Source: Candidatus Heimdallarchaeota archaeon
GTDB lineage: Archaea > Asgardarchaeota > Heimdallarchaeia > JABLTI01
Assembly: GCA_030614005.1 (NCBI GenBank)
Contig: JAUWKS010000073.1
Location: 1 to 14,794 of the forward strand
Length of the DNA stretch: 14,794 nt
Reading direction: 5' to 3'
The notes under the pieces were generated by a model. The model saw only the letters and a list, made by a program, of their open reading frames with translations. It was not told the origin of the DNA and did not search any database. Shown here one piece after another: positions 1 to 14,480 of this stretch (positions are counted from its first letter, which is position 1; each line of letters starts with the position of its first letter). The position numbers and the translations under genes are program-made.

Positions 1-3000
1 ATACTTACATTACCCCCATCCAAACCAAGAGTTAGGACCGATTTAGTTTGGTCTGATCTTCTACCTAAAGAAGCAGAAGGACTTGGAATAGTTCTTGAGT
101 CAATAGTGCAAAGTGCTCACCCCTATGAGCATCAAGCAGAAGCAATACAGCATTTGCTGAATTCAACAACCACCAATAACGGGTTAATCATTAATGGAGG
201 AACATATTCAGGGAAATCGCTCTCGTTTAGTGTTCCTGGAATAACTAAAATATTAACAGGTGAAACTGATTTTTTTGTAGTATTCTATCCATCAAAGCAG
301 CTTCTACTGGATCAATTTGACCGGATGAAAGAATTAGTTGTAAAATTAGAAGAGCAAAGTGGGAAACGATTAACCGTTAAGATGTATAGTGGTGATATTA
401 GTAGAGCAACAGGTTCAACAGTTAGTAAGCATGCACAGAAAAAAGAGCTATATGAAACAGAGCAACATCCACCAAACATCCTTTTAGCAACATTCGATAA
501 ATTCTGGTACCAGATAATGAGCGGAAAAACAAATCCATTACTCGATAAAATAACTAGTAGCCAGTATATGGTTTTTGATGAGATACATGCCTTTGAAGGT
601 TTTGCAGCAGCAATCATTAAAGGATTTACTCAGATACACAAGAAAAAGAATCCCAAATGTCAAGTTGTCCTATCCTCTGCAACGATTGATGATGTTGTGG
701 ATTTTAGGGATGATTTCTTACAAGGTGCGGGAATTATTACTTGCCCTCCTGTGCGTGGAGAACATGAATTCCTTGGAATAACAAAAGAACATACTGTACC
801 ATTTCTTGCCGATCTTTGGCATGAACTAGACTCTTTACCAGGAAAATTCTGCCTAGTATTTATGGACTCTAAAGAAGAGATTGAACTACTAGCAGAACGA
901 CTGTGTGCAAAGCTTAGGAAAAAGCACCCATTCTTTGAAGAAATAACTATAGCAATTATTCATGCAGACTTGCCATATCCTCAACGAAAAAAGATACTTG
1001 ATGAGATAAAGAAGGGAACAAGGAACAGAATCAAGATACTCATTTCCTCCTCTGTTTTAGAGCTAGGAGTGAATATACCAAATGTCCAAACAGTAGTAAA
1101 TATTGGGATACCAATTACTCAAAAGGATGGTATCGTTCAAAGATTCGCTCGTAACCGTTCTAACCCAAGTGAAAGACGTGTGAATGTCTGTATTTTCGAT
1201 TTGGTTAACTCTCGAGACAACTTCTATTGGCATCATCTTGAAATATTACGTACTATACTTGAAACAAATGCTTGCAATCCAATACTCTATCCAAGACAAA
1301 ATCCCAAGATTTTGGCTGGATTACTTGTCCTTCATTTACGATATGGTGTCAATGATTATCAAGAAATATTCTCTTTCTTTTTGAAAGAAGGAAGGAAAGT
1401 TTATGAAATAGCTCGGCAGCAACTCACTAAACTCATTAGTTTCAACGTGCTAAAAAAAGTGCCTGGTAAAATCTTGTTTACCAGTCAGGGAGAAAATAGA
1501 CTTCAACAATTAAAAAACAATAATGTTCTCGTTCCTTTATCTATTAGAGCTATTAGTACTAATTGGTCTATCCAATTGAAGAAAGGTATTGATTCCATTC
1601 GGTTAACAGATCAAACAACCTCATTAGGTAAAATTTCCACAAAAGATGTGCTCAAGAAAGGTTTGTCTGGCAATCTTATTATTAGGAATAGACAGAAATA
1701 TCTAGTTACTGATGTCGATAAGTGGCAAAAAACTATCCTAGTAAAAAAATATTTTATAAATGATTCGGATGATACTTTCTCTTTACCACCAATAAATCAA
1801 TTATATGACCCAACTATTTCCGTTGATGTATATCCGAAGAAAATTTTAGGAACAAGATTAGTGACCATCAATTTTGGACAGATCACTGCCAACCAAAAGC
1901 CAAAGATAATTGTAAATGCCAATCCAAATTCAATGCTACTTAATGATAAAGGCAGGGATGAGAACAACAACTATTTTTATCAGGAATTGACACAGCAAGA
2001 ATCCAATGAATTTGCAATAGCCGAAAACTCAGAAGGCATCATCATAAGCATGGAAACTGAATTATTAAAACCAAAAAACCTTACGACCAAGAAAATGCTA
2101 AAATTATTTGGTGAAATTCTGCTCATTGAAGCTGAGATGGTTCTTTCTATACCTGCTTCTGAATTTGAACTCGTGTATAATGCCAATCAATTGGCAATTT
2201 ATGATAAAGGAGAACCAAATGGAAACGCTGAATATTTGTTTTTACACTTACAAGAAGTAGCCCAACAAGCATTACTTAGATTAGAGCAATGCTCCTGTGA
2301 GCGAGGGTGTGAATATTGTTATGGAGAGATTCTGGGTCTTTTACCTGATGGTTCCAAAGAATATCTAAAACAATTGGTAAAAGATTTGGTAAATATTTCA
2401 AATTTAGAGTCGCTTGATAATACAGAAGCAATTGAACCCAATTTGCAAATCGATTCCCAAGAGAACAATATAATTGCTTTTTCCGATATTCATCTTACAC
2501 ATGAGTTATGCTTTCAAGAAGAATTTTTTGAAGCTATTAGTGAATTCAGCAAACAAGCGGTTATTATTATTATAAATGGTGACTTGCTGGACAAAGTGTC
2601 TGAGGAAAGTAAGGACGCATTCAATCAATTAAAAACAAAAGCAATACAAGAGGGATATTGGTCAAAATTAGTGTTTGTTCGAAGTTCTTCTATTCATGAT
2701 GGTAATCTCGAACAATTCTCTGGCTTTCTCCATCAAGACTATGTTTATATTGAAACTAAAACAGATCAAGTGCTTTTTGTCCATGGAAACAGAATTGGTG
2801 TTGATCCTAAAATTGTTGCAGAAAGAAAGGCTAAAGGAGCAACTATAGATGCAAAATGGAAACTAATTAGTAAAGAAGGTAGAAAGCGGTTGCCAAAAAT
2901 TACCAAAGAAACTCACCTTGTGGTAGGTCATTTGCATGAACGTTTCTTTGACGAAGAGAACAGGGTTTATGGTTTAGGTCATTGGTTAAAGAAAGGAAAT

Positions 3001-3099
3001 GCTTATCATCAAAAAAACTTGATGATAATTGATTCAACAAAGGATACAGATGAAATAAAGCTTTATCAGTTTGATAAAGCGAATTCATTCCTCTGTTAG
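1..3099 (+). CDS. YprA/MrfA-like DEAD/DEAH-box SF2 helicase with DUF1998-type C4 Zn motif, fused to a C-terminal calcineurin-like metallophosphoesterase (5' partial)
   Basis: The frame is open from base 1 (ILTLPPSKPRVRTDLVWSDLL...), so the GTG at 106 is probably not the true start. Motifs: Q-motif YEHQAEAI; Walker A GGTYSGKS (196-219); Ia YPSKQLLLDQ; II DEIH (577-588); III SAT; V LELGVNI; degenerate VI QRFARNR. These are followed by a winged-helix-like segment and CSCERGCEYC (2290-2319). From about 2467 come the phosphoesterase motifs SDIH, GDLLD, SIHD, VHG and GHLH. Confidence 0.85.
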   Translation: MLTLPPSKPRVRTDLVWSDLLPKEAEGLGIVLESIVQSAHPYEHQAEAIQHLLNSTTTNNGLIINGGTYSGKSLSFSVPGITKILTGETDFFVVFYPSKQLLLDQFDRMKELVVKLEEQSGKRLTVKMYSGDISRATGSTVSKHAQKKELYETEQHPPNILLATFDKFWYQIMSGKTNPLLDKITSSQYMVFDEIHAFEGFAAAIIKGFTQIHKKKNPKCQVVLSSATIDDVVDFRDDFLQGAGIITCPPVRGEHEFLGITKEHTVPFLADLWHELDSLPGKFCLVFMDSKEEIELLAERLCAKLRKKHPFFEEITIAIIHADLPYPQRKKILDEIKKGTRNRIKILISSSVLELGVNIPNVQTVVNIGIPITQKDGIVQRFARNRSNPSERRVNVCIFDLVNSRDNFYWHHLEILRTILETNACNPILYPRQNPKILAGLLVLHLRYGVNDYQEIFSFFLKEGRKVYEIARQQLTKLISFNVLKKVPGKILFTSQGENRLQQLKNNNVLVPLSIRAISTNWSIQLKKGIDSIRLTDQTTSLGKISTKDVLKKGLSGNLIIRNRQKYLVTDVDKWQKTILVKKYFINDSDDTFSLPPINQLYDPTISVDVYPKKILGTRLVTINFGQITANQKPKIIVNANPNSMLLNDKGRDENNNYFYQELTQQESNEFAIAENSEGIIISMETELLKPKNLTTKKMLKLFGEILLIEAEMVLSIPASEFELVYNANQLAIYDKGEPNGNAEYLFLHLQEVAQQALLRLEQCSCERGCEYCYGEILGLLPDGSKEYLKQLVKDLVNISNLESLDNTEAIEPNLQIDSQENNIIAFSDIHLTHELCFQEEFFEAISEFSKQAVIIIINGDLLDKVSEESKDAFNQLKTKAIQEGYWSKLVFVRSSSIHDGNLEQFSGFLHQDYVYIETKTDQVLFVHGNRIGVDPKIVAERKAKGATIDAKWKLISKEGRKRLPKITKETHLVVGHLHERFFDEENRVYGLGHWLKKGNAYHQKNLMIIDSTKDTDEIKLYQFDKANSFLC

Positions 3100-4536
3100 T
3101 TCCTCGTAGATGCCTTTGAATTGTTCTAAAGCAAATTCGAGATTTTCAACAATTTCATGAGCAATAACTTCTGGGTCCGGGAGATTTTCGAGGTCTTCCA
3201 TACTCTCATCTCTCAACCAGAAAATATCAAGGTTAACTTTGTCTCGCTGCATTAATTCATCATAAGTAAATGCTTTGAATCTCTCGGATTCTTTCCTCTT
3301 GTGTCTATTTTCAGAATTATAACATTCGATAAATTCCTCCAAATCAGTATATCGTAGAGGATTTTCCTTGAGTGTAAAATGTTTATTGGTACGTAAATCA
3401 TAAATCCAGAGTTTATCAGTCCATGGTTTATCGCTTGCAGGTTTCTTATCAAAAAAGAGAACATTAGCCTTTACACCCTGAGCATAGAAAATTCCTGTTG
3501 GTAATCTAAGCAATGTATGAACATCACATGTTGTAAGAAGTTTTTTTCTAATAGTTTCACCTGCGCCACCTTCAAAAAGAACATTATCAGGTACAACAAT
3601 AGCAGTTTTTCCATGTATTTTAAGGATTGTTTTCACATGTTGCAGGAAATTTAGTTGTTTGTTAGAGGTTGTTGCCCAAAAATCTTCTCGTTCATAAATT
3701 AACGATGATTTAGCTGCTTTTCCTTCAGAATTGGTGATTGTAATACTACTTTTTTTCCCAAAAGGAGGATTTGTTAATACATAGTCATAACGAATTTTTG
3801 GATCCGAGAGTAGTGAATCTTTACAATTAATAGGGCTCTCTTCACCACCAATACCATGAAGGTACAGATTCATAACACACAACCTAACAACATTATCTAC
3901 TATATCTGTTCCTTTGAAAGTTCTATATCGCAAGAATTCTTTTTGGTCTTTATCAAGAGAATACTTTTTGATAAATTCATGAGCTGCGAGAAAGAATCCA
4001 CCAGTTCCACAAGCAGGGTCACAAATTGTTTTCATAGGTTCAGGTTTCACAACAGTAACCATTGCTTTGATAAGTGGTCTTGGGGTGAAATATTGACCCG
4101 CACCGCTCTTAGTATCTTCTGCATTCTTTTGGAGTAATCCTTCATAGATTTCTCCTTTTATATCAATATCTAGACCCATCCAAATTTCTTCATCAATAAG
4201 TGAGAGTAATCTTTTTAATTTCGCTGGATCCTGAATTCTATTCTGCGATTTTCTGAAAATAACTCCAAGAGATCCTTCGCTTTTTCCTAAATTGAACAGT
4301 ACATTTCGATAATGATTCTCAAGTTCTGTGCCATCTTTTGAGATTAAACTCTGCCAGTTGAAATCTTCTGGAATAATTGATGTTATCTTTAGTATTCTTT
4401 CTTGTTCATCAGCCATTTTCAGAAATAATAAGTAAGTAAGCTGTTCTACATAATCGCCATAACTTACACCATCATCCCGTAATACATTACAATAATTCCA
4501 TAATTTTTGTACTATCGTTGCTGAATCTTTATTCAA
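3085..4536 (-). CDS. hsdM: Type I restriction-modification N6-adenine methyltransferase subunit M
   Basis: N-terminal KLWNYCNVLRDDG..YGDYVEQLTYLLFLKM, GQYFTPR, SAM-binding DPACGTGGF and catalytic NPPF. TTG start overlaps the hsdS stop by 8 bp. Confidence 0.96.
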   Translation of the reverse strand: MNKDSATIVQKLWNYCNVLRDDGVSYGDYVEQLTYLLFLKMADEQERILKITSIIPEDFNWQSLISKDGTELENHYRNVLFNLGKSEGSLGVIFRKSQNRIQDPAKLKRLLSLIDEEIWMGLDIDIKGEIYEGLLQKNAEDTKSGAGQYFTPRPLIKAMVTVVKPEPMKTICDPACGTGGFFLAAHEFIKKYSLDKDQKEFLRYRTFKGTDIVDNVVRLCVMNLYLHGIGGEESPINCKDSLLSDPKIRYDYVLTNPPFGKKSSITITNSEGKAAKSSLIYEREDFWATTSNKQLNFLQHVKTILKIHGKTAIVVPDNVLFEGGAGETIRKKLLTTCDVHTLLRLPTGIFYAQGVKANVLFFDKKPASDKPWTDKLWIYDLRTNKHFTLKENPLRYTDLEEFIECYNSENRHKRKESERFKAFTYDELMQRDKVNLDIFWLRDESMEDLENLPDPEVIAHEIVENLEFALEQFKGIYEELTEE

Positions 4537-5986
4537 AATCTTCTAACCTCGCTTGCTTTGTTTTTATATCTGCATTGGCAGAATTTATTTGAACATCTTC
4601 TTTAGATTTGCTTGTTAAACTATTTAATTCCAAATCTTTATCAAATTGAGAAATCAATTTTCCTTCAAAAGCTTTCTTTAAGATGCCTTGTTTCAATATT
4701 CTATTTTTTAGCAAAATGTTTTCAATATATTTTTCTATTTTCTCAATATTTGTTAATCGCCATTCGATTTTTTCTGCTATTTCCTTTTGTTCAATTTTTG
4801 TTGGTATAGGTACGAATTGATTTAACACATCAATATATCTAACTGCCGGATAACTAGAACCACGTTGAATTCTTGTTAATGAGTTAACAAATGAGTTTGT
4901 TAAAGTATAATAAAAAAGAAATTTAGGTACGATTATTTTTTTATTTGGTCTTAAAATACAAAATCCGGTTGAAGCAATTTGTTTATTATTTTGTTCCTTT
5001 ACAAATGCGATATTTCTTAGATAAGTTCTAACTGTCGAAAAAAGAACATCGTCAGTTTTTATTTGTTGTCTAGCTCTTGATGGAGCATTTTTCCCCAATA
5101 TTTTTTTTGGTTTAGTAATTTCATATTTATTAATTGATGAAATATCAATGTATGTGAAATATTCATTGGGTTTTTCAGAAGGTTTTACTTTTTTGACTTC
5201 TTCAGAAATATTACAAATTTGCATCATAGTCCATCCCAAATTTTGAGAAATAATACTCAATCGTCTATTTGAACTAGAATTAGACTTGTTAGTTTTTGAA
5301 ATAAGTATTTGTTCAGAATCAATTTCAACTAATTTCTTTAAATTGGTTGTTCTCCATTTTTCTGTTAATTTTCCTTCAAAAGCAGCCTTCAAAACAGCTT
5401 GACGATACCTAGCAAGTTGTAATTTAGTATGTTTGAGGGATTTAACTCCAGCATCTAGCTTGGTGAATAATTTCTCTAATTTAATCACTATCATTTCTTG
5501 TTGTTGTATTGGAGGTAATAAAATCTCAATTTTTCTTAAATCTTCTAAGTGTAGATTCTTAATAACTCCTCCTTTCACTGTTTGTTGAATATCTATACTT
5601 TTAATGTAATTATCTAATGAGTACATCAAGAAAAAAGGATTTACTTTATTTTTATCGGGCTTTAGTAAAGCAACACTAACGAATAAATCGAATTCTTGTT
5701 TTGTTTTAATAACAGCTGTTCTTCCAATTGTACCACTTTTAGTAATTAAAACATCATGATATTCTGGATTACACTTTTTTGTTAATTTTATATGTGCTTC
5801 TTTTGAAATATATTTGATATTTTTAAAGTCAATTTTTTTATCTCTGATGTTTTTTACTGAGATAAATGCAATGCCCTTTTCTGTGTATTTTGGTGTATGA
5901 TGCGCACCATCAGTAATTTTTATACATATTTCGTTTAAGTTTACCTTATGCCAATTGTTTTGTAAAAAAAAATTCTCCTTATTCAT
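4529..5986 (-). CDS. hsdS: Type I restriction-modification specificity subunit S (two TRDs)
   Basis: Layout is TRD1, helical conserved region (LPPIQQQ...AVLKAAFEGKL), TRD2, second conserved region (PIPTKIEQ...ILKKAFEGKL). It lies between hsdR and hsdM, with an ATGA overlap with hsdR. Confidence 0.95.
   Translation of the reverse strand: MNKENFFLQNNWHKVNLNEICIKITDGAHHTPKYTEKGIAFISVKNIRDKKIDFKNIKYISKEAHIKLTKKCNPEYHDVLITKSGTIGRTAVIKTKQEFDLFVSVALLKPDKNKVNPFFLMYSLDNYIKSIDIQQTVKGGVIKNLHLEDLRKIEILLPPIQQQEMIVIKLEKLFTKLDAGVKSLKHTKLQLARYRQAVLKAAFEGKLTEKWRTTNLKKLVEIDSEQILISKTNKSNSSSNRRLSIISQNLGWTMMQICNISEEVKKVKPSEKPNEYFTYIDISSINKYEITKPKKILGKNAPSRARQQIKTDDVLFSTVRTYLRNIAFVKEQNNKQIASTGFCILRPNKKIIVPKFLFYYTLTNSFVNSLTRIQRGSSYPAVRYIDVLNQFVPIPTKIEQKEIAEKIEWRLTNIEKIEKYIENILLKNRILKQGILKKAFEGKLISQFDKDLELNSLTSKSKEDVQINSANADIKTKQARLEDFE
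4656..5383. repeat. Pair of exact 17-bp direct repeats AATTTTCCTTCAAAAGC (4656-4672 and 5367-5383) inside hsdS
   Basis: Read directly from the sequence. The copies are 711 bp apart (237 codons, in frame) and both encode AFEGKL in the two conserved regions of HsdS. Confidence 0.85.
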
Positions 5987-8736
5987 GATATAAGCACCTC
6001 ATTAATCTCCACTAAAATTGCATTAAGCTTGTTATTGAAAAGTCTATTAGCTTTTACTTGCCCTCCTTTTTCAAAGAATGGTGCATATTGAAAATCAGAT
6101 TCTTCAATACTTAATGATGATATTATATGATTTTTAATTAAAACCAACCATTCCTTTTGTTCATCAGTAAATTTACGATTACTTTCTTCCTGCTCTTCCA
6201 ACCAGCTATTAAATCTGTGATTTATTTCTTCTGAAAATGGCTCTAATAATTCAATATCACCAAGCTCAAATCTAATGAGAGAAATGATATTGGTTAGTAA
6301 TTTTTGTGTTCCAACTCGTTTTACTTTAGCTTGATGTAATTGCTCATAGGCTTGCCAAAGTTGTTCTGTAGATAGACGATAGGGAGGTTTTTCAATTGCT
6401 TCTGCAAGTTCTTTGATTTGCTTAAATGTTAATTTTCTTTGACCATATGGCTTACTGTAGAAAATTTGCAGTGCTGTCAATTCATTCTTATTATCAACAA
6501 TAAATTTCTTAAAAGTATCAATTATTGTTTTCGCTCTTTCTCTTGCTTTATCATCATGACCAGCAAATAATATCTCATCTTTACTTATCTTATCAATTGT
6601 TTGTTCGTTTCTTGTTTTTATTTCAATTATCTTATTCCTTACTTTTGGTTCATAAAAAATCGCACAAGCAGCTTCTTTTTGTTTCTTCTCTATGTTCTCT
6701 TTCTGTTTTTTAGTAGGTTTATCTGTGTTGTATTCTTCCTTTGCTCTCTCTTCAATTATATCAGGATCAATTGAATCCAGCAGTCCATTTATTATCTCTT
6801 TTAATGGTTTATCTTTTGTAACAGCTAGTAATTCTTTCTTTGACTTTTCATCTATTTGATTATTCAACCTTGATAATCGACTGGCTAATGAGCTGATGGT
6901 ATCATTTTCTCTATTACCATAAACTATTGAATTCATTAATTTATCAAATTTAATTGATCTTTTTCGTTCTAATGGTCTAGAATCCGTTTTATCACTTTCA
7001 CATACACCAACCGCATCAACAATGACAAAATGAGTTTTCTCTTTAGCATCCATGGTTACTTGTTGGAAATCTGTTGACGAGATTGTTCTTGTTCCTCTTC
7101 CTTTCATTTGCTCAAAATAAACTCTTGATTTCACATCTCTCATAAACAGCAAGCATTCAAGTGGTTTAATATCTGTTCCAGTTGAGATCATATCTACTGT
7201 TACTACTATTCGTAGTGGATAGGAATTCCTAAAACTAGCAATCAAATCCTCTGGTTTTTCTCCAGATTTATAGGTTATTTTCTTACAAAATTCATTTCCT
7301 TTTCCAAATTCCTCTCGTATTATTCCTACGATATCTTCCGCATGTGAATCATCTTTAGCAAAAACTAGTGTTTTTGGTACATCTTTTCTTCCGGGAAAGA
7401 TCTCTGTGAATAGCTTCTCTTTAAATGTTTTAATTACCAATCTAATTTGGTCAACAGCAACAACACTTCTGTCTAGTTCTCTAGCAGTATATTTCAGTTC
7501 TTCGTCTAATATCTCCCATCTCTTTTTTCTTGTCAATTTGTCTCGTTTATCTATAAATTCCCCTGCTTCTACTTTGCTTCCCTTTTCAGTTATTTTTGTT
7601 TTTATTCTATAAACATCGTAATCAACATTTACTCCATCAGCTACAGCTCTATCATGAGCGTATTCCGTTACTAAATTTTGATTGAAAAATCCTAAAGTAT
7701 GTTTTGCAGGAGTAGCTGTTAAGCCTATAATAAACGAATCAAAATATTCCAAAACTTGACGCCATAAATTGTAGATAGATCTATGACATTCATCAGTCAC
7801 GATAAAATCAAACGTTTCTATTGGTATTTCTGGATTATAAACTACTTCTCTTGAAGCTTTCTCTCTTAATGGATCTATTTGGAACAATGACTTTTCTTCT
7901 AATTCATCCTCATATTCTTTTTCTCCCCTAAGCATAGAATATAATCTTTGTATTGTAGTTATACAAATTTTACTTACAGAATCAATTGTATTTGTTGTTA
8001 AATGCTCTACATTATATAATTCCGTAAACTTCCGTCCATCATCTGGTGTGATATATTGTTGAAATTCTTTATTGGTTTGTCTTCCAAGATTACTCCTATC
8101 AACTAAGAATAATATCCTTTTAGCTTTTGCGAACTTTATTAGACGATAGCCAAATGAAACTGCAGTATATGTTTTACCGCTTCCAGTAGCCATTTGAATT
8201 AGTGACCGTGGTCTACCATCATGAAATGATTTTTCTAAATTTGTAATTGCCTGAATTTGACAATCTCTTAAACCTTTAACATCTAAGGGAGGTAATTCTT
8301 GTAATTTTCCACGCAGACTTTTTTCTTGCTTTGACCACTCCAGCAATGTTTTTGGTTGATGAAAAGTAAAAACTCTTCTTGACCGAGGATTTGGATCCCT
8401 TAGATCGGCAAAAAAAGTTACTATTCCTGTTGTTTCATAAGTAAACAGTGGTTTTGCTTTCATATACTCAAATTTTTCTTCAAAAGCTGAAAGATATTTC
8501 TTCGATTGATCATACACACCACTTAGTGTCGTTCCTTTCGGTTTAGCTTCAACCACACCTAGTGGATTACCATTTACTAATAATAAATAATCTGCAAATC
8601 CTATGCCTAATGGAAATTCCCTAACAGCAACCCCCAATGCTGCTTTCGGATTAAAGTCCTTGTATTCTTGTAATAACCAACCTGCTTCTTCAAGTTGCTT
8701 ATCTATTTCCCTTCTTGCCTTTTCCTCTGGTTTCAT
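5983..8736 (-). CDS. hsdR: Type I restriction endonuclease/translocase subunit R (EcoAI/EcoEI-like architecture)
   Basis: N-terminal PD-(D/E)xK nuclease (ADYLL...VEAK, QSKKY = QxxxY), Walker A MATGSGKT, DECH, TATP, motif VI EQMKGRGTR, and a helical C-terminal region resembling EcoEI_R_C. Confidence 0.96.
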   Translation of the reverse strand: MKPEEKARREIDKQLEEAGWLLQEYKDFNPKAALGVAVREFPLGIGFADYLLLVNGNPLGVVEAKPKGTTLSGVYDQSKKYLSAFEEKFEYMKAKPLFTYETTGIVTFFADLRDPNPRSRRVFTFHQPKTLLEWSKQEKSLRGKLQELPPLDVKGLRDCQIQAITNLEKSFHDGRPRSLIQMATGSGKTYTAVSFGYRLIKFAKAKRILFLVDRSNLGRQTNKEFQQYITPDDGRKFTELYNVEHLTTNTIDSVSKICITTIQRLYSMLRGEKEYEDELEEKSLFQIDPLREKASREVVYNPEIPIETFDFIVTDECHRSIYNLWRQVLEYFDSFIIGLTATPAKHTLGFFNQNLVTEYAHDRAVADGVNVDYDVYRIKTKITEKGSKVEAGEFIDKRDKLTRKKRWEILDEELKYTARELDRSVVAVDQIRLVIKTFKEKLFTEIFPGRKDVPKTLVFAKDDSHAEDIVGIIREEFGKGNEFCKKITYKSGEKPEDLIASFRNSYPLRIVVTVDMISTGTDIKPLECLLFMRDVKSRVYFEQMKGRGTRTISSTDFQQVTMDAKEKTHFVIVDAVGVCESDKTDSRPLERKRSIKFDKLMNSIVYGNRENDTISSLASRLSRLNNQIDEKSKKELLAVTKDKPLKEIINGLLDSIDPDIIEERAKEEYNTDKPTKKQKENIEKKQKEAACAIFYEPKVRNKIIEIKTRNEQTIDKISKDEILFAGHDDKARERAKTIIDTFKKFIVDNKNELTALQIFYSKPYGQRKLTFKQIKELAEAIEKPPYRLSTEQLWQAYEQLHQAKVKRVGTQKLLTNIISLIRFELGDIELLEPFSEEINHRFNSWLEEQEESNRKFTDEQKEWLVLIKNHIISSLSIEESDFQYAPFFEKGGQVKANRLFNNKLNAILVEINEVLIS

Positions 8737-12410: not shown

Positions 12411-12443
12411 AAAAAAAGAAAGTAATAGGGAAATTCCTTCCCT
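12411..12443 (-). terminator. Hairpin plus U-tract terminator of the longin-GTPase-7TM operon
   Basis: The minus strand reads AGGGAA-GGAAT-TTCCCT (perfect 6-bp stem, 5-nt loop) then ATTACTTTCTTTTTTT, starting 20 nt after the 7TM stop codon. Confidence 0.55.
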
Positions 12444-12463: not shown

Positions 12464-13423
12464 CTATGGATCAGCTACTTCCATGACAGTTTGTATTTCT
12501 GTCTTAGAAGTCTCAGAAGAGATAAATGAATATTTCTGAGTTGTCTTCTTCTTATCTAAGGACTTTACTATCCAAGCTTTTCCTCTTATGGCTTTCTTTA
12601 ACCAGTCTGGAAGAATCCAGCCAAGATAAGCAAAAACTACTACAGCTATGTTGAAAAGAATTCTAATGATATTAACGACAACTACGAGAGTACCAACATT
12701 AGTTATTGCTTCTTGAGTGAAGAGAATAGCAACTGCTCGTTCGAGAAAGATAAAAATAACCGAAATTAAAATAAGAGTAACTCCTGTTCTTGCTACTTTT
12801 TCCTTCAAATTTCTGCGAATGACAATTAACCTGTAGATAATTCTCACAAAGATAATCAGAATGATTGGCACAAAGATTACTAATGCAGCAAGCAAATGAG
12901 GAATAAACTGATATGTTCCAGTTCCTGCATAAGCAACATACTGTGTAAATCCTTCCTGATCAAGCCCCCAACCATAGATTCCTTCTGAAACACTAGGAAT
13001 ATATTCAGCTATTAATTCTGAAATCATCATTCCACCTAAAATTCCTAAGAGAAGTGTTAATGCTATTGAAGTAAATGATTTTGTTATATCACTATCTCGT
13101 AATATATGTCGGTTTGCAAAGTAATAGAAGAAAATGAAGCTAGCTAGATTGAGTATAAGGGAAATTATCTGTACGTATCCGTGAGCTAAAACAGAATTAT
13201 CACCAAATATCATTGATGCGTTAATCCAAGATCCCGCTTGAGTTAAAATATCTGCTAGAATAAATGTTCCGAAAAACAATAGCAAAAGACCTGTTCCAAC
13301 TGTTCTTTTTTTGAAGTAATTCCTAACGAGAATACCAAAAAAAACAATGAAAAAGGCACTACCAACAGCACCAAAAATAAGGTAAAACCAACCAGCATTT
13401 GTTACGCTTCCAAAAGCAACCAT
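12464..13423 (-). CDS. Seven-transmembrane protein of unknown function (receptor-like, predicted N-out/C-in)
   Basis: Likely start is ATG 13423 (MVAFGSV..., 319 aa), 1 nt after the GTPase stop and preceded by GGAGG. There are seven hydrophobic segments by eye, with basic clusters after TM1, TM5 and TM7 and a long loop between TM4 and TM5. Confidence 0.8.
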   Translation of the reverse strand: MVAFGSVTNAGWFYLIFGAVGSAFFIVFFGILVRNYFKKRTVGTGLLLLFFGTFILADILTQAGSWINASMIFGDNSVLAHGYVQIISLILNLASFIFFYYFANRHILRDSDITKSFTSIALTLLLGILGGMMISELIAEYIPSVSEGIYGWGLDQEGFTQYVAYAGTGTYQFIPHLLAALVIFVPIILIIFVRIIYRLIVIRRNLKEKVARTGVTLILISVIFIFLERAVAILFTQEAITNVGTLVVVVNIIRILFNIAVVVFAYLGWILPDWLKKAIRGKAWIVKSLDKKKTTQKYSFISSETSKTEIQTVMEVADP

Positions 13424-13424
13424 T

Positions 13425-13961
13425 TTATCGTTCCTCCATTTTTTCTTTAAACCAACTGAACGCTTCGATAATCCCTTCACCCGTTAAGGCAGAAGTCTCG
13501 AAGACCGCCCATTCTATTTCGTATTCAGTTTCTATTAAACCAAATCTCTTCACTAAATCAGCTTGACTAATTCGATCAGGTAAATCTTTTTTATTCAATA
13601 GAAGAAGTACGGGGATTTTTCCACCAATTTGATTAGCTAAGATGTCGTTAAAAATTCCTTTGGTTAAATCAAATCGCATATGATCAACACTATCAATAAC
13701 ATAAATAAGCGCATCTGTTTTTTCGTTTATCTCTTGCCAAATAGGCCGAAAATCTTCTTGCCCACCCATATCAAAGATATTTATTTGAAGTTTTGGAAAG
13801 TTAATAACTTCTCGATTGACTCCCATGGTTGGTGTTGTTTCTTTGAATTCTCCATGAATCAGGTAATTGATTATTGCTGTTTTCCCAGCTTTATCAAGAC
13901 CACAGATAGTCACAGTCACCGGTTTTGCTTTCTTTCTAAATAAGTTAAGTAAAAATGACAT
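13425..13961 (-). CDS. Arf/Arl-like small GTPase
   Basis: G1 GLDKAGKT, switch I TTPTMGVN, G3 FDMGGQ followed by FRPIW, YVIDSVD, G4 NKKD, G5 SALTGEG, and N-terminal amphipathic MSFLLNLFRKK. These match Arf-family signatures. SD GAGGT at 13969-13973. Confidence 0.93.
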   Translation of the reverse strand: MSFLLNLFRKKAKPVTVTICGLDKAGKTAIINYLIHGEFKETTPTMGVNREVINFPKLQINIFDMGGQEDFRPIWQEINEKTDALIYVIDSVDHMRFDLTKGIFNDILANQIGGKIPVLLLLNKKDLPDRISQADLVKRFGLIETEYEIEWAVFETSALTGEGIIEAFSWFKEKMEER

Positions 13962-13979: not shown

Positions 13980-14480
13980 TTATTTCCAGAGATCATCTTG
14001 CATTGATACAGCAAATTCTTTGCCTGGATCTTCTTCACTCTTTTTTTCACTAGTAAAATCAAATTCTAATGTTACAACAGAGCTAATTTTTATTTTTACC
14101 TTTTCTTTACTTAATCCTTCATATAAATGAGGCAATATTTTAGTAATCATCTCGATATTGACCATTTGATTCTTTTCTAGTTCTGTAACTGTAAATGAGA
14201 AAAATCTTCGTATGTCTTCTCGCTTGTAATCAGATCCTTCAAAAACCGCTACTAAGGTCGCGATATTGTTTCTTTCTGCTCCTGGCACGCTAAATATATA
14301 GCTTTCAAAAACGCATTTATCTGCTGTACTTGATGAGAAGTCTCCTTCCTTTGAGCTCATTGGCATGCTTTTCAATACGATTTGATTCAAAGTGCTTTCT
14401 GGAACAACATCAGGATGAGCCTTTACTAATTCTAGACCTTTTTTCCCCATCTGTATTAAACATAAACTTATAGGTTTCAT
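13980..14480 (-). CDS. Hypothetical protein, putative longin/uDENN-like fold
   Basis: 166-aa ORF with SD TGAGGT (14487-14492). The by-eye secondary-structure order beta-beta-alpha-beta-beta-beta-alpha-alpha and the N-terminal hydrophobic strand-G-x7-P pattern fit longin domains. The fold call is inference. Confidence 0.6.
   Translation of the reverse strand: MKPISLCLIQMGKKGLELVKAHPDVVPESTLNQIVLKSMPMSSKEGDFSSSTADKCVFESYIFSVPGAERNNIATLVAVFEGSDYKREDIRRFFSFTVTELEKNQMVNIEMITKILPHLYEGLSKEKVKIKISSVVTLEFDFTSEKKSEEDPGKEFAVSMQDDLWK

Follow-up and report, generated by a model that had tools for sequence, protein, structure and literature searches.

In eukaryotes, the longin-containing complex GATOR1 (NPRL2-NPRL3) acts on the GTPases RagA/B together with LYCHOS/GPR155, and the C9orf72-SMCR8-WDR41 complex acts on Arf together with PQLC2 (PMC12290439, PMC11525196, PMC7039192). 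The actinobacterial conservons have long been likened to G-protein-coupled receptor (GPCR) systems (PMC13343842, PMC13621833). As for the Asgard archaea, NPRL2-like longins in them were noted by Liu et al. (10.1101/2020.10.19.343400), and the GTPase targets of NPRL2/FLCN-like Asgard longins have been posed as an open question (PMC12290439). It is rare for Asgard GTPase genes to share an operon with regulators, and this hampers their pairing (PMC10933270). Membrane binding in yeast and conformational switching have been shown for Asgard Arf GTPases. Here, we describe a gene encoding a seven-transmembrane (7TM) protein in a 14,794-nucleotide (nt) stretch of a Candidatus Heimdallarchaeota archaeon (assembly GCA_030614005.1, contig JAUWKS010000073.1), hereafter the window. 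The gene occupies positions 12464..13423 of the minus strand, encodes 319 amino acids (aa) plus a stop, and is the last gene of a cassette that also encodes a longin-domain protein and an Arf-family GTPase. We see an even chance that the 7TM protein serves as the membrane-bound subunit, for docking or sensing, of a longin/Arf switch cassette specific to Heimdall-type Asgard archaea.

The loci of the 7TM family were collected by exact look-ups, a pattern scan and whole-genome searches, and the two upstream genes were sought with hidden Markov models; 26 distinct loci were obtained. In all 25 loci with upstream sequence, a longin gene lies directly upstream of the 7TM gene on the same strand, and the remaining locus ends at a contig edge. 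An Arf-family gene is located between the longin and 7TM genes in 20 of the 26 loci, with intergenic gaps of 1-25 nt, while the other six contain the longin and 7TM genes without Arf. The constant neighbour of the 7TM gene is thus the longin, not the GTPase. The outer flanks of the cassette are unrelated between loci. A link to the adjacent GTPase had been proposed in the original prediction, made from the window sequence; the adjacency recurs while the flanks differ, but an output through the GTPase is still a suggestion from gene order. Two decayed copies of the cassette can also be noted. In L007/L014, which is counted among the 20, the Arf gene (3433-3861 of L007) is split by an in-frame stop, and in L020 (1489-2307), which is one of the six Arf-less loci, the 7TM gene is broken by two TAA stops.

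The genome of the window (G000) contains five cassettes. The four further paralogous cassettes (C26:39003-39860 (L010), C74:25124-25915 (L013), C10:2416-3255 (L011) and C16:16764-17615 (L012)) comprise two with longin, Arf and 7TM genes and two with longin and 7TM genes. Among these paralogous cassettes, the 7TM proteins differ by 64-78% and the longins by 40-65%. When pairwise distances across cassettes are compared between the 7TM, longin and Arf proteins, r is 0.87-0.93 (Mantel p about 2e-4), and the same clades are found in the three trees. Judging by the correlated distances and the matching clades, each cassette was duplicated and passed on as a whole, and this holds for the paralogues within a single genome too.

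Kyte-Doolittle hydropathy of the 7TM protein with a 19-residue window has seven peaks (about 12-33, 42-62, 82-102, 117-140, 175-197, 212-235 and 243-267). In the AlphaFold2 model, constructed with 25 homologues (predicted local distance difference test (pLDDT) 80.3, predicted template-modelling score (pTM) 0.75), seven long helices coincide with these peaks, in agreement with the seven transmembrane (TM) helices predicted originally. The model also has a beta-hairpin at residues 160-175 within the long TM4-TM5 loop, two short helices after TM7 (273-280 and 282-291) and regions of low confidence or disorder at 142-151 and in the C-terminal tail 292-319. In the 25 aligned members, the inner loops contain on average 15.8 Lys and Arg residues (minimum 12) and the outer loops 1.5 (maximum 4), with no exception. 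The N-out/C-in orientation, which had been assigned earlier to the single protein, is well supported because the excess of basic residues in the inner loops is observed in 25/25 members. All motifs quoted at that time are present (RNYFKKR, RRNLKEKVAR, LPDWLKKAIRG, LADIL, ER of TM6 and N/R/N of TM7), the Cys count is zero, and TM7 of the window's protein contains Arg254 and no Lys, hence no retinal Lys. It was also correctly noted that the protein carries no fused output domain, since all relatives are only 108-380 aa in length and stand alone; a fused domain was found in none of them.

The conservation alignment consisted of 25 7TM sequences, 20 from Arf-containing cassettes and five from intact Arf-less ones. 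Among the top 40 conserved positions, 39 are on the cytoplasmic side, and the mean conservation is 0.58 inside and 0.38 outside (Mann-Whitney p 2e-18). Mapping of the polar residues, proposed earlier as a check of a polar transmembrane core, thus led elsewhere: in the aligned sequences the conserved surface is cytoplasmic, and the outer half diverges freely between paralogues. Of the buried polar core itself, Arg254 in the outer half of TM7 (codon 12662..12664, minus strand; R in 23/25, K in 2/25) and Glu136 at the outer end of TM4 (codon 13016-13018; E/D in 22/25) are conserved and are the only conserved polar residues of the outer side, Arg254 being the sole strongly conserved outer position. 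The rest of this core did not hold, as Asp58 is D/E in just 10/25 sequences and E228, R229, N251 and N258 are variable. The outer loop of about 35 aa between TM4 and TM5 (aa 141-174; 12902..13003, minus strand, delimited by the AlphaFold2 secondary structure), to which attention had been drawn at the second extracellular loop (ECL2) position, is indeed present in the window's protein but is an insertion specific to its orthologous group; it is about 13-17 aa shorter in other paralogues. The mean conservation of this loop is 0.25, the lowest save for the disordered C-terminal tail (0.24).

The conserved cytoplasmic face is composed of several motifs. The first intracellular loop (ICL1) contains the motif Y/F-x-K-K-R/K-T-x-G-T (aa 36-44; 13292..13318, minus strand), in which all 20 Arf-containing cassettes have K39 and 25/25 sequences have G43. 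The cytoplasmic end of TM3 and ICL2 contain Y-x-F-x-x-R-H-I-L-x-D-x-D/E (aa 100-112; 13088..13126, minus strand) with Y100, F102, R105 and D110 invariant in 25/25; this stretch has the highest conservation of all regions (mean 0.72). The end of TM7 and the following helix read Y-L-G-W-I-L-P-D-W-L-K-K-x-I-R-G-K-A-W-I (aa 266-285; 12569..12628, minus strand), with Y266, G268, W269 and P272 invariant and the consensus W-L-K-K-x-I-R-x-K-x-W-I/F after P272. R194 at the inner end of TM5 and G214 and I218 at that of TM6 are also conserved.

The comparison of cassettes with and without Arf divides this face. The R280-x-K282-x-W284 motif is retained in 19 of the 20 Arf-containing cassettes, while in 5/5 Arf-less ones it is disrupted by indels or substitutions and its register is lost. 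K39 is replaced in three of the five Arf-less cassettes, in which the ICL2 and Y-x-G-W-x-x-P-x-W motifs are retained. This pattern, although it stems from few events, suggests a possible link of the distal post-TM7 helix and ICL1 with Arf, and of the remaining parts of the face with the longin or the fold.

The extreme C-terminus of the 7TM protein carries the motif E-V-A-D-P (aa 315-319; 12467..12481, minus strand), kept as E-[VI]-[SA]-[DE]-P in a long-tail subgroup; in the model of the window's protein, the tail is predicted to be disordered. This subgroup also has Y-S-F-S-S-S. The longin protein ends with D-D-L-W-K (13980-13994) after a disordered stretch, its Trp being nearly invariant. 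The conserved end tails of the two proteins, both after disordered stretches, may be docking motifs.

The middle gene of the cassette (13425..13961, minus strand; 178 aa) clearly encodes an Arf-family GTPase (Pfam Arf PF00025, E 3.9e-43), judging by its G1-G5 motifs and a predicted N-terminal amphipathic helix. The orthologues from 19 cassettes have an invariant P-loop (GLDxAGKT) and conserved PTMGVN, DxGGQ with the catalytic Gln68, NKxD, SA and N-terminal MSFLxxLF. Ser2 is present instead of Gly2; therefore, the myristoylation glycine is absent.

The first gene (13980..14480, minus strand) encodes the longin-domain protein of 166 aa, for which Pfam gave nothing. Strands and helices succeed one another as in longins in its model (pLDDT 83), and the structural matches of the model put its fold nearest to NPRL2. 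Since a profile search against PDB sequences gave matches to CsgE and hexokinase only, at chance level, the relation of the longin to NPRL2 is one of fold. Arg70, invariant in 23 sequences, falls within the loop that joins strands 4 and 5; it could correspond to the arginine finger found in longins acting as GTPase-activating proteins (GAPs; NPRL2 Arg78). These longins have a GP motif where strand 2 begins (PMC12290439), but here the near-invariant Gly15 is followed by Leu16, not Pro. A joint fold of the 7TM, longin and Arf proteins with alignments reached a score of 0.29 against a mark of 0.32, without controls, and speaks neither for nor against binding.

A search of the 7TM model against the PDB using Foldseek returned only GPCRs, weakly (E 4e-3; TM-score 0.35-0.53 among the matches listed). 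In an exhaustive VIA-align search of 48,161 representatives, all of the best 50 matches listed are GPCR 7TM domains, with values of 16.6 and 16.4 for the Drosophila GABA-B receptor, 15.1 for GPR156, about 14 for many class A receptors, 13.9 for Ste2 and 13.7 for Frizzled. The query being a model, and such values barely exceeding those reachable by a helical-bundle arrangement alone, they point to receptor-type packing, not to homology. In the ESM Atlas, the models that come nearest are those of HisKA_7TM sensor domains from bacteria (TM-score by query of 0.54-0.64, covering 215-254 residues, both sides being predictions), and an unnamed Asgard cluster is also among the near matches. Transporter, PAQR and microbial-rhodopsin folds are absent among the best 50 VIA-align matches listed, which does not exclude these folds. 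Of the four groups named earlier for structural comparison, GPCRs and HisKA_7TM were thus recovered, the latter in the ESM Atlas, but PAQR and microbial rhodopsin were not seen among the best 50.

At the sequence level, no GPCR family (7tm_1, 7tm_2, 7tm_3, Frizzled, STE2 and others) was matched at E <= 1 in the 25 members. The class A marks E/DRY, CWxP and NPxxY are absent, and a TM3-ECL2 disulfide is impossible without Cys. In their place, TM3 ends with Y-x-F-x-x-R-H-I-L-R-D and TM7 with Y-L-G-W-I-L-P-D-W, so that the GPCR likeness of these ends is positional only. Kinship with HisKA_7TM (PF16927) was rejected at the sequence level, as hmmscan was blank in all members and hhalign against 12 Heimdall HisKA_7TM domains gave a probability of 0.1%. 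Because no sequence kinship of the protein with the GPCR or HisKA_7TM families was found, the earlier designation "GPCR-like" stands for shape and topology but not for descent. The protein is shaped like a 7TM receptor, yet belongs to no described family. A retinal rhodopsin was rejected as well: TM7 in the window has no Schiff-base Lys, Arg254 is the sole conserved basic residue there, and Bac_rhodopsin and Heliorhodopsin are unmatched in the 25 members. The same applies to a hydrolase of the PAQR or alkaline ceramidase type, since no intramembrane His is conserved (the only conserved His is H106 in ICL2) and no Pfam match was obtained. PQ-loop/SWEET proteins gave no Pfam match in the 25 members and are absent from the best 50 structural matches, an absence that does not exclude the fold.

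In the proposed mechanism, the cytoplasmic face of the 7TM protein would dock the co-encoded longin protein, and its ICL1 and distal post-TM7 helix would also dock the co-encoded Arf GTPase. In this way, a defined site on the membrane may host the GTP/GDP cycle of Arf or gate it. Regulation of the Arf GTPase would fall to the longin, probably a GAP by analogy with NPRL2, and the variable outer half of the 7TM protein may sense, perhaps a different cue for each paralogue. There are precedents for multi-pass proteins in such a role: PQLC2 recruits the longin GAP complex C9orf72-SMCR8-WDR41 (PMC7039192), and LYCHOS binds GATOR1 (PMC11525196). As the 7TM gene is always beside the longin gene and usually beside the Arf gene in one operon, its product is a testable candidate for the membrane partner of an archaeal Arf. 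The topology, gene order, co-divergence and cytoplasmic bias of conservation are direct observations, as is the fold class of the predicted model; physical contact, the assignment of partners to sites, sensing and the direction of signalling are inferred.

Several points weigh against this mechanism. The case for binding is built from gene order and conservation patterns only, and no ligand site can be named. Tight operons co-diverge with or without contact of their products, so that the correlation of distances indicates co-inheritance only. The six loci without Arf imply that the 7TM protein has no strict need of Arf, and the comparison with the Arf-less cassettes covers only about two independent lineages. 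Finally, profile searches with the 25 members found no receptor family related at the sequence level.

There are two other explanations, each of which we consider improbable. The 7TM protein might be a transporter, channel or membrane-shaping effector or cargo under the control of Arf-GTP and the longin, that is, the output of the switch and not its input. Eukaryotic Arf proteins do recruit or regulate membrane effectors (10.1101/2024.02.28.582541), both PQLC2 and LYCHOS are of transporter or hybrid type (PMC7039192, PMC11525196), and the conserved outer acid of TM4 and the Arg of TM7 could line a substrate path. However, a transporter or channel fold is absent from the best 50 structural matches, although this does not exclude one, and the poor conservation of the core and outer half, apart from E/D136 and R254, would be unusual for a transporter with a fixed substrate. 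Alternatively, the three proteins could be co-transcribed and take part in a common process, such as envelope or membrane homeostasis, with no complex between them; the cytoplasmic face would then be conserved for folding, lipid contact or an unlinked partner. Contact is not proven by gene order alone, and Asgard small GTPase genes are generally outside operons with regulators (PMC10933270), so rules from elsewhere may fail here. Such a loose association is harder to reconcile with the persistence of the whole cassette, with spacers of 1-25 nt, in two families of the class and over repeated duplications, with a specific cytoplasmic motif that is lost exactly where Arf is lost, and with the 39 of 40 top conserved positions that face the cytoplasm.

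The receptor-like shape leads to a further explanation, which seems quite unlikely to us: the 7TM protein would be a ligand-gated guanine-nucleotide exchange factor (GEF) that directly activates the co-encoded Arf, with the longin as an off-switch of the regulator-of-G-protein-signalling (RGS)/GAP kind. The model is GPCR-like in fold and topology, and a conserved Arg motif at the inner end of TM3 and a motif at the end of TM7 and helix 8 are located where GPCRs contact G proteins, the distal part of the latter following the presence of Arf. The variable outer half and the expansion of paralogues resemble a receptor family. The three-gene cassette contains no other gene of exchange-factor type, and no Sec7-type Arf exchange factor is known from Asgard archaea, which can be counted in its favour. 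Nevertheless, GPCR sequence homology was not found, the motif likenesses are positional and not homologous, six cassettes have no Arf, and exchange could instead be the task of the longin, as many longin/roadblock modules are GEFs. Very unlikely is the fullest version, in which a GPCR-fold protein would sense a cue from outside or from the membrane, perhaps via the TM4 acid and Arg254, and directly activate its own Arf, which the NPRL2-like longin would turn off; if true, the receptor/G-alpha/GAP logic would have a functional counterpart, and possibly a relative, that predates eukaryotes.

The 7TM protein had been regarded as an orphan. Contrary to this, it belongs to a family that occurs in multiple copies and only in Heimdall-type Asgard archaea. 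Its homologues number 26 after clustering at 90% identity, and at 50% they make up 58 clusters among 1.84 billion representatives. In searches of 399 genomes of the phylum, strong matches over the full length were limited to the family of the window (9 of 11 genomes) and one other family of the same class, with up to five copies per genome, the maximum being found in the window's genome. Pfam has no family for the window's protein nor for any of the 25 members, and the family profile found nothing among PDB sequences at E <= 10. The sub-threshold Pfam matches were discarded as chance: UNC-50 was matched by a single member (16.5 bits versus a cut-off of 22.1), and each of DUF998, Ycf66_N and DUF4293 by three. 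Look-alikes according to a protein language model are unnamed clusters, mostly from Asgard archaea, with one mainly bacterial among the top three; the nearest named cluster has HisKA_7TM in 10% of its members (score 0.86).

Weaker, partial matches restricted to TM5-TM7 were found in seven-helix proteins of 250-270 aa throughout the Asgard phylum (L031-L042; e.g., L034:1489-2268 and L036:1054-1806). This wider family shares the TM7-end motif Y-L-G-x-x-M-P-x-W-L-K-R-R-I, and the ICL2 motif is absent. In L034, L035 and L042, the gene directly upstream matches Sybindin/Fuz_longin/Roadblock weakly, below the threshold. The divergent upstream gene in L032 and L033 is of the Arf family and has an N-terminal extension.

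In the window cassette, the spacers are 18 nt between the longin and Arf genes and 1 nt between the Arf and 7TM genes, and each of the three genes has its own GAGG-type ribosome-binding site. The open reading frame of the 7TM protein starts with ATG at 13423, 1 nt past the stop of the Arf gene and preceded by GGAGG 8 nt 5' of it, and its stop codon is at 12464-12466. A terminator-like hairpin (12443-12427) with a T-rich tail (12411..12443 as a whole, minus strand), assigned by consensus match only, begins 21 nt past the 7TM stop; within the window cassette, it is present after the 7TM gene only. The window also encodes FttA/aCPSF1, an LSM protein and a PUA protein beside a type I restriction-modification operon. 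At positions 1-8736, the gene of a DEAD/DUF1998 (MZB) helicase converges on the complete type I operon hsdM, hsdS, hsdR, which is unrelated to the cassette.

The papers on Asgard longins make no mention of the cassette operon or of a membrane partner (PMC12290439, 10.1101/2020.10.19.343400), and the literature searched contained no account of 7TM genes beside Asgard Arf genes. Signature proteins listed without detail in a 2026 preprint include a "class C GPCR" structural cluster of Asgard archaea and eukaryotes and earlier "7TM proteins", which may or may not be the cassette 7TM family (10.64898/2026.10.28.762692). The cassette appears to be undescribed in this literature, although its kind, a membrane sensor with a longin/roadblock regulator and a small GTPase, is already known. 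The cassette supplies matched triples of longin, Arf and membrane protein, several per genome, for joint expression and testing. Provided that the 7TM protein binds its partners, archaeal Arf proteins would have in it their first membrane receptor or platform, and the cassette would be a prokaryotic counterpart of the systems of lysosomal sensor, longin GAP and GTPase. If the 7TM protein also drives nucleotide exchange, this would bear directly on the origin of receptor-coupled G-protein signalling.

Like the cassette Arf, the Asgard ArfR/AArf proteins have an N-terminal amphipathic helix and the catalytic Gln; the papers on them mention no neighbouring genes, operons or transmembrane partners, and the 7TM and longin proteins are additional to what they describe (10.1101/2024.02.28.582541; PMC11914678). 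HisKA_7TM domains, which the nearest ESM Atlas models represent, are also prokaryotic 7TM sensor modules; however, they are fused to kinase, GGDEF, HD or HTH outputs, whereas the cassette 7TM protein stands alone. HisKA_7TM histidine kinases of about 600-630 aa were detected in 19 of the 22 genomes of another Heimdall family, f6 (L043-L054), where the cassette 7TM gene was found in none of the 22. They were found neither in the 11 other searched genomes of the window's family, f1, nor in the window's genome. The distributions of the two look complementary, in counts that ignore kinship and sampling. Compared with GPCRs of classes A, C, D, F and T, the partner of the 7TM protein would be a monomeric Arf, not a heterotrimer. 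A resemblance to Sys1 with Arl3p/ARFRP1 can also be noted, where an Arf-family GTPase without a myristoylated Gly2 relies on a multi-pass protein for membrane targeting. Unlike the cassette 7TM protein, Sys1 has four helices and no known longin partner, and the two are likened by description only.

The closest functional parallels of the cassette would be, by analogy, the eukaryotic longin-GAP complexes with multi-pass partners and, among prokaryotes, the actinobacterial conservons. In contrast to the former, the cassette consists of three small single-domain proteins encoded in one operon, without DENN, the NPRL C-terminal domain, WDR41, DEPDC5 or Ragulator. Its GTPase is of the Arf type and not a Rag as in the case of GATOR1, its longin has G-L in place of the GP motif of GAP longins, and the likeness of the 7TM protein to LYCHOS and PQLC2 would be a functional analogy. 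The conservons differ in that their sensor is histidine-kinase-like and not a bare 7TM bundle, their GTPase is MglA/Ras-like and not Arf, a fourth core protein, CvnC, is present, and they are bacterial, with no sequence relation to the cassette. What the conservons (CvnA-D) share with it is a prokaryotic operon that combines a membrane sensor, a regulator of the roadblock/longin superfamily and a small GTPase of the Ras superfamily (PMC13343842, PMC13621833).

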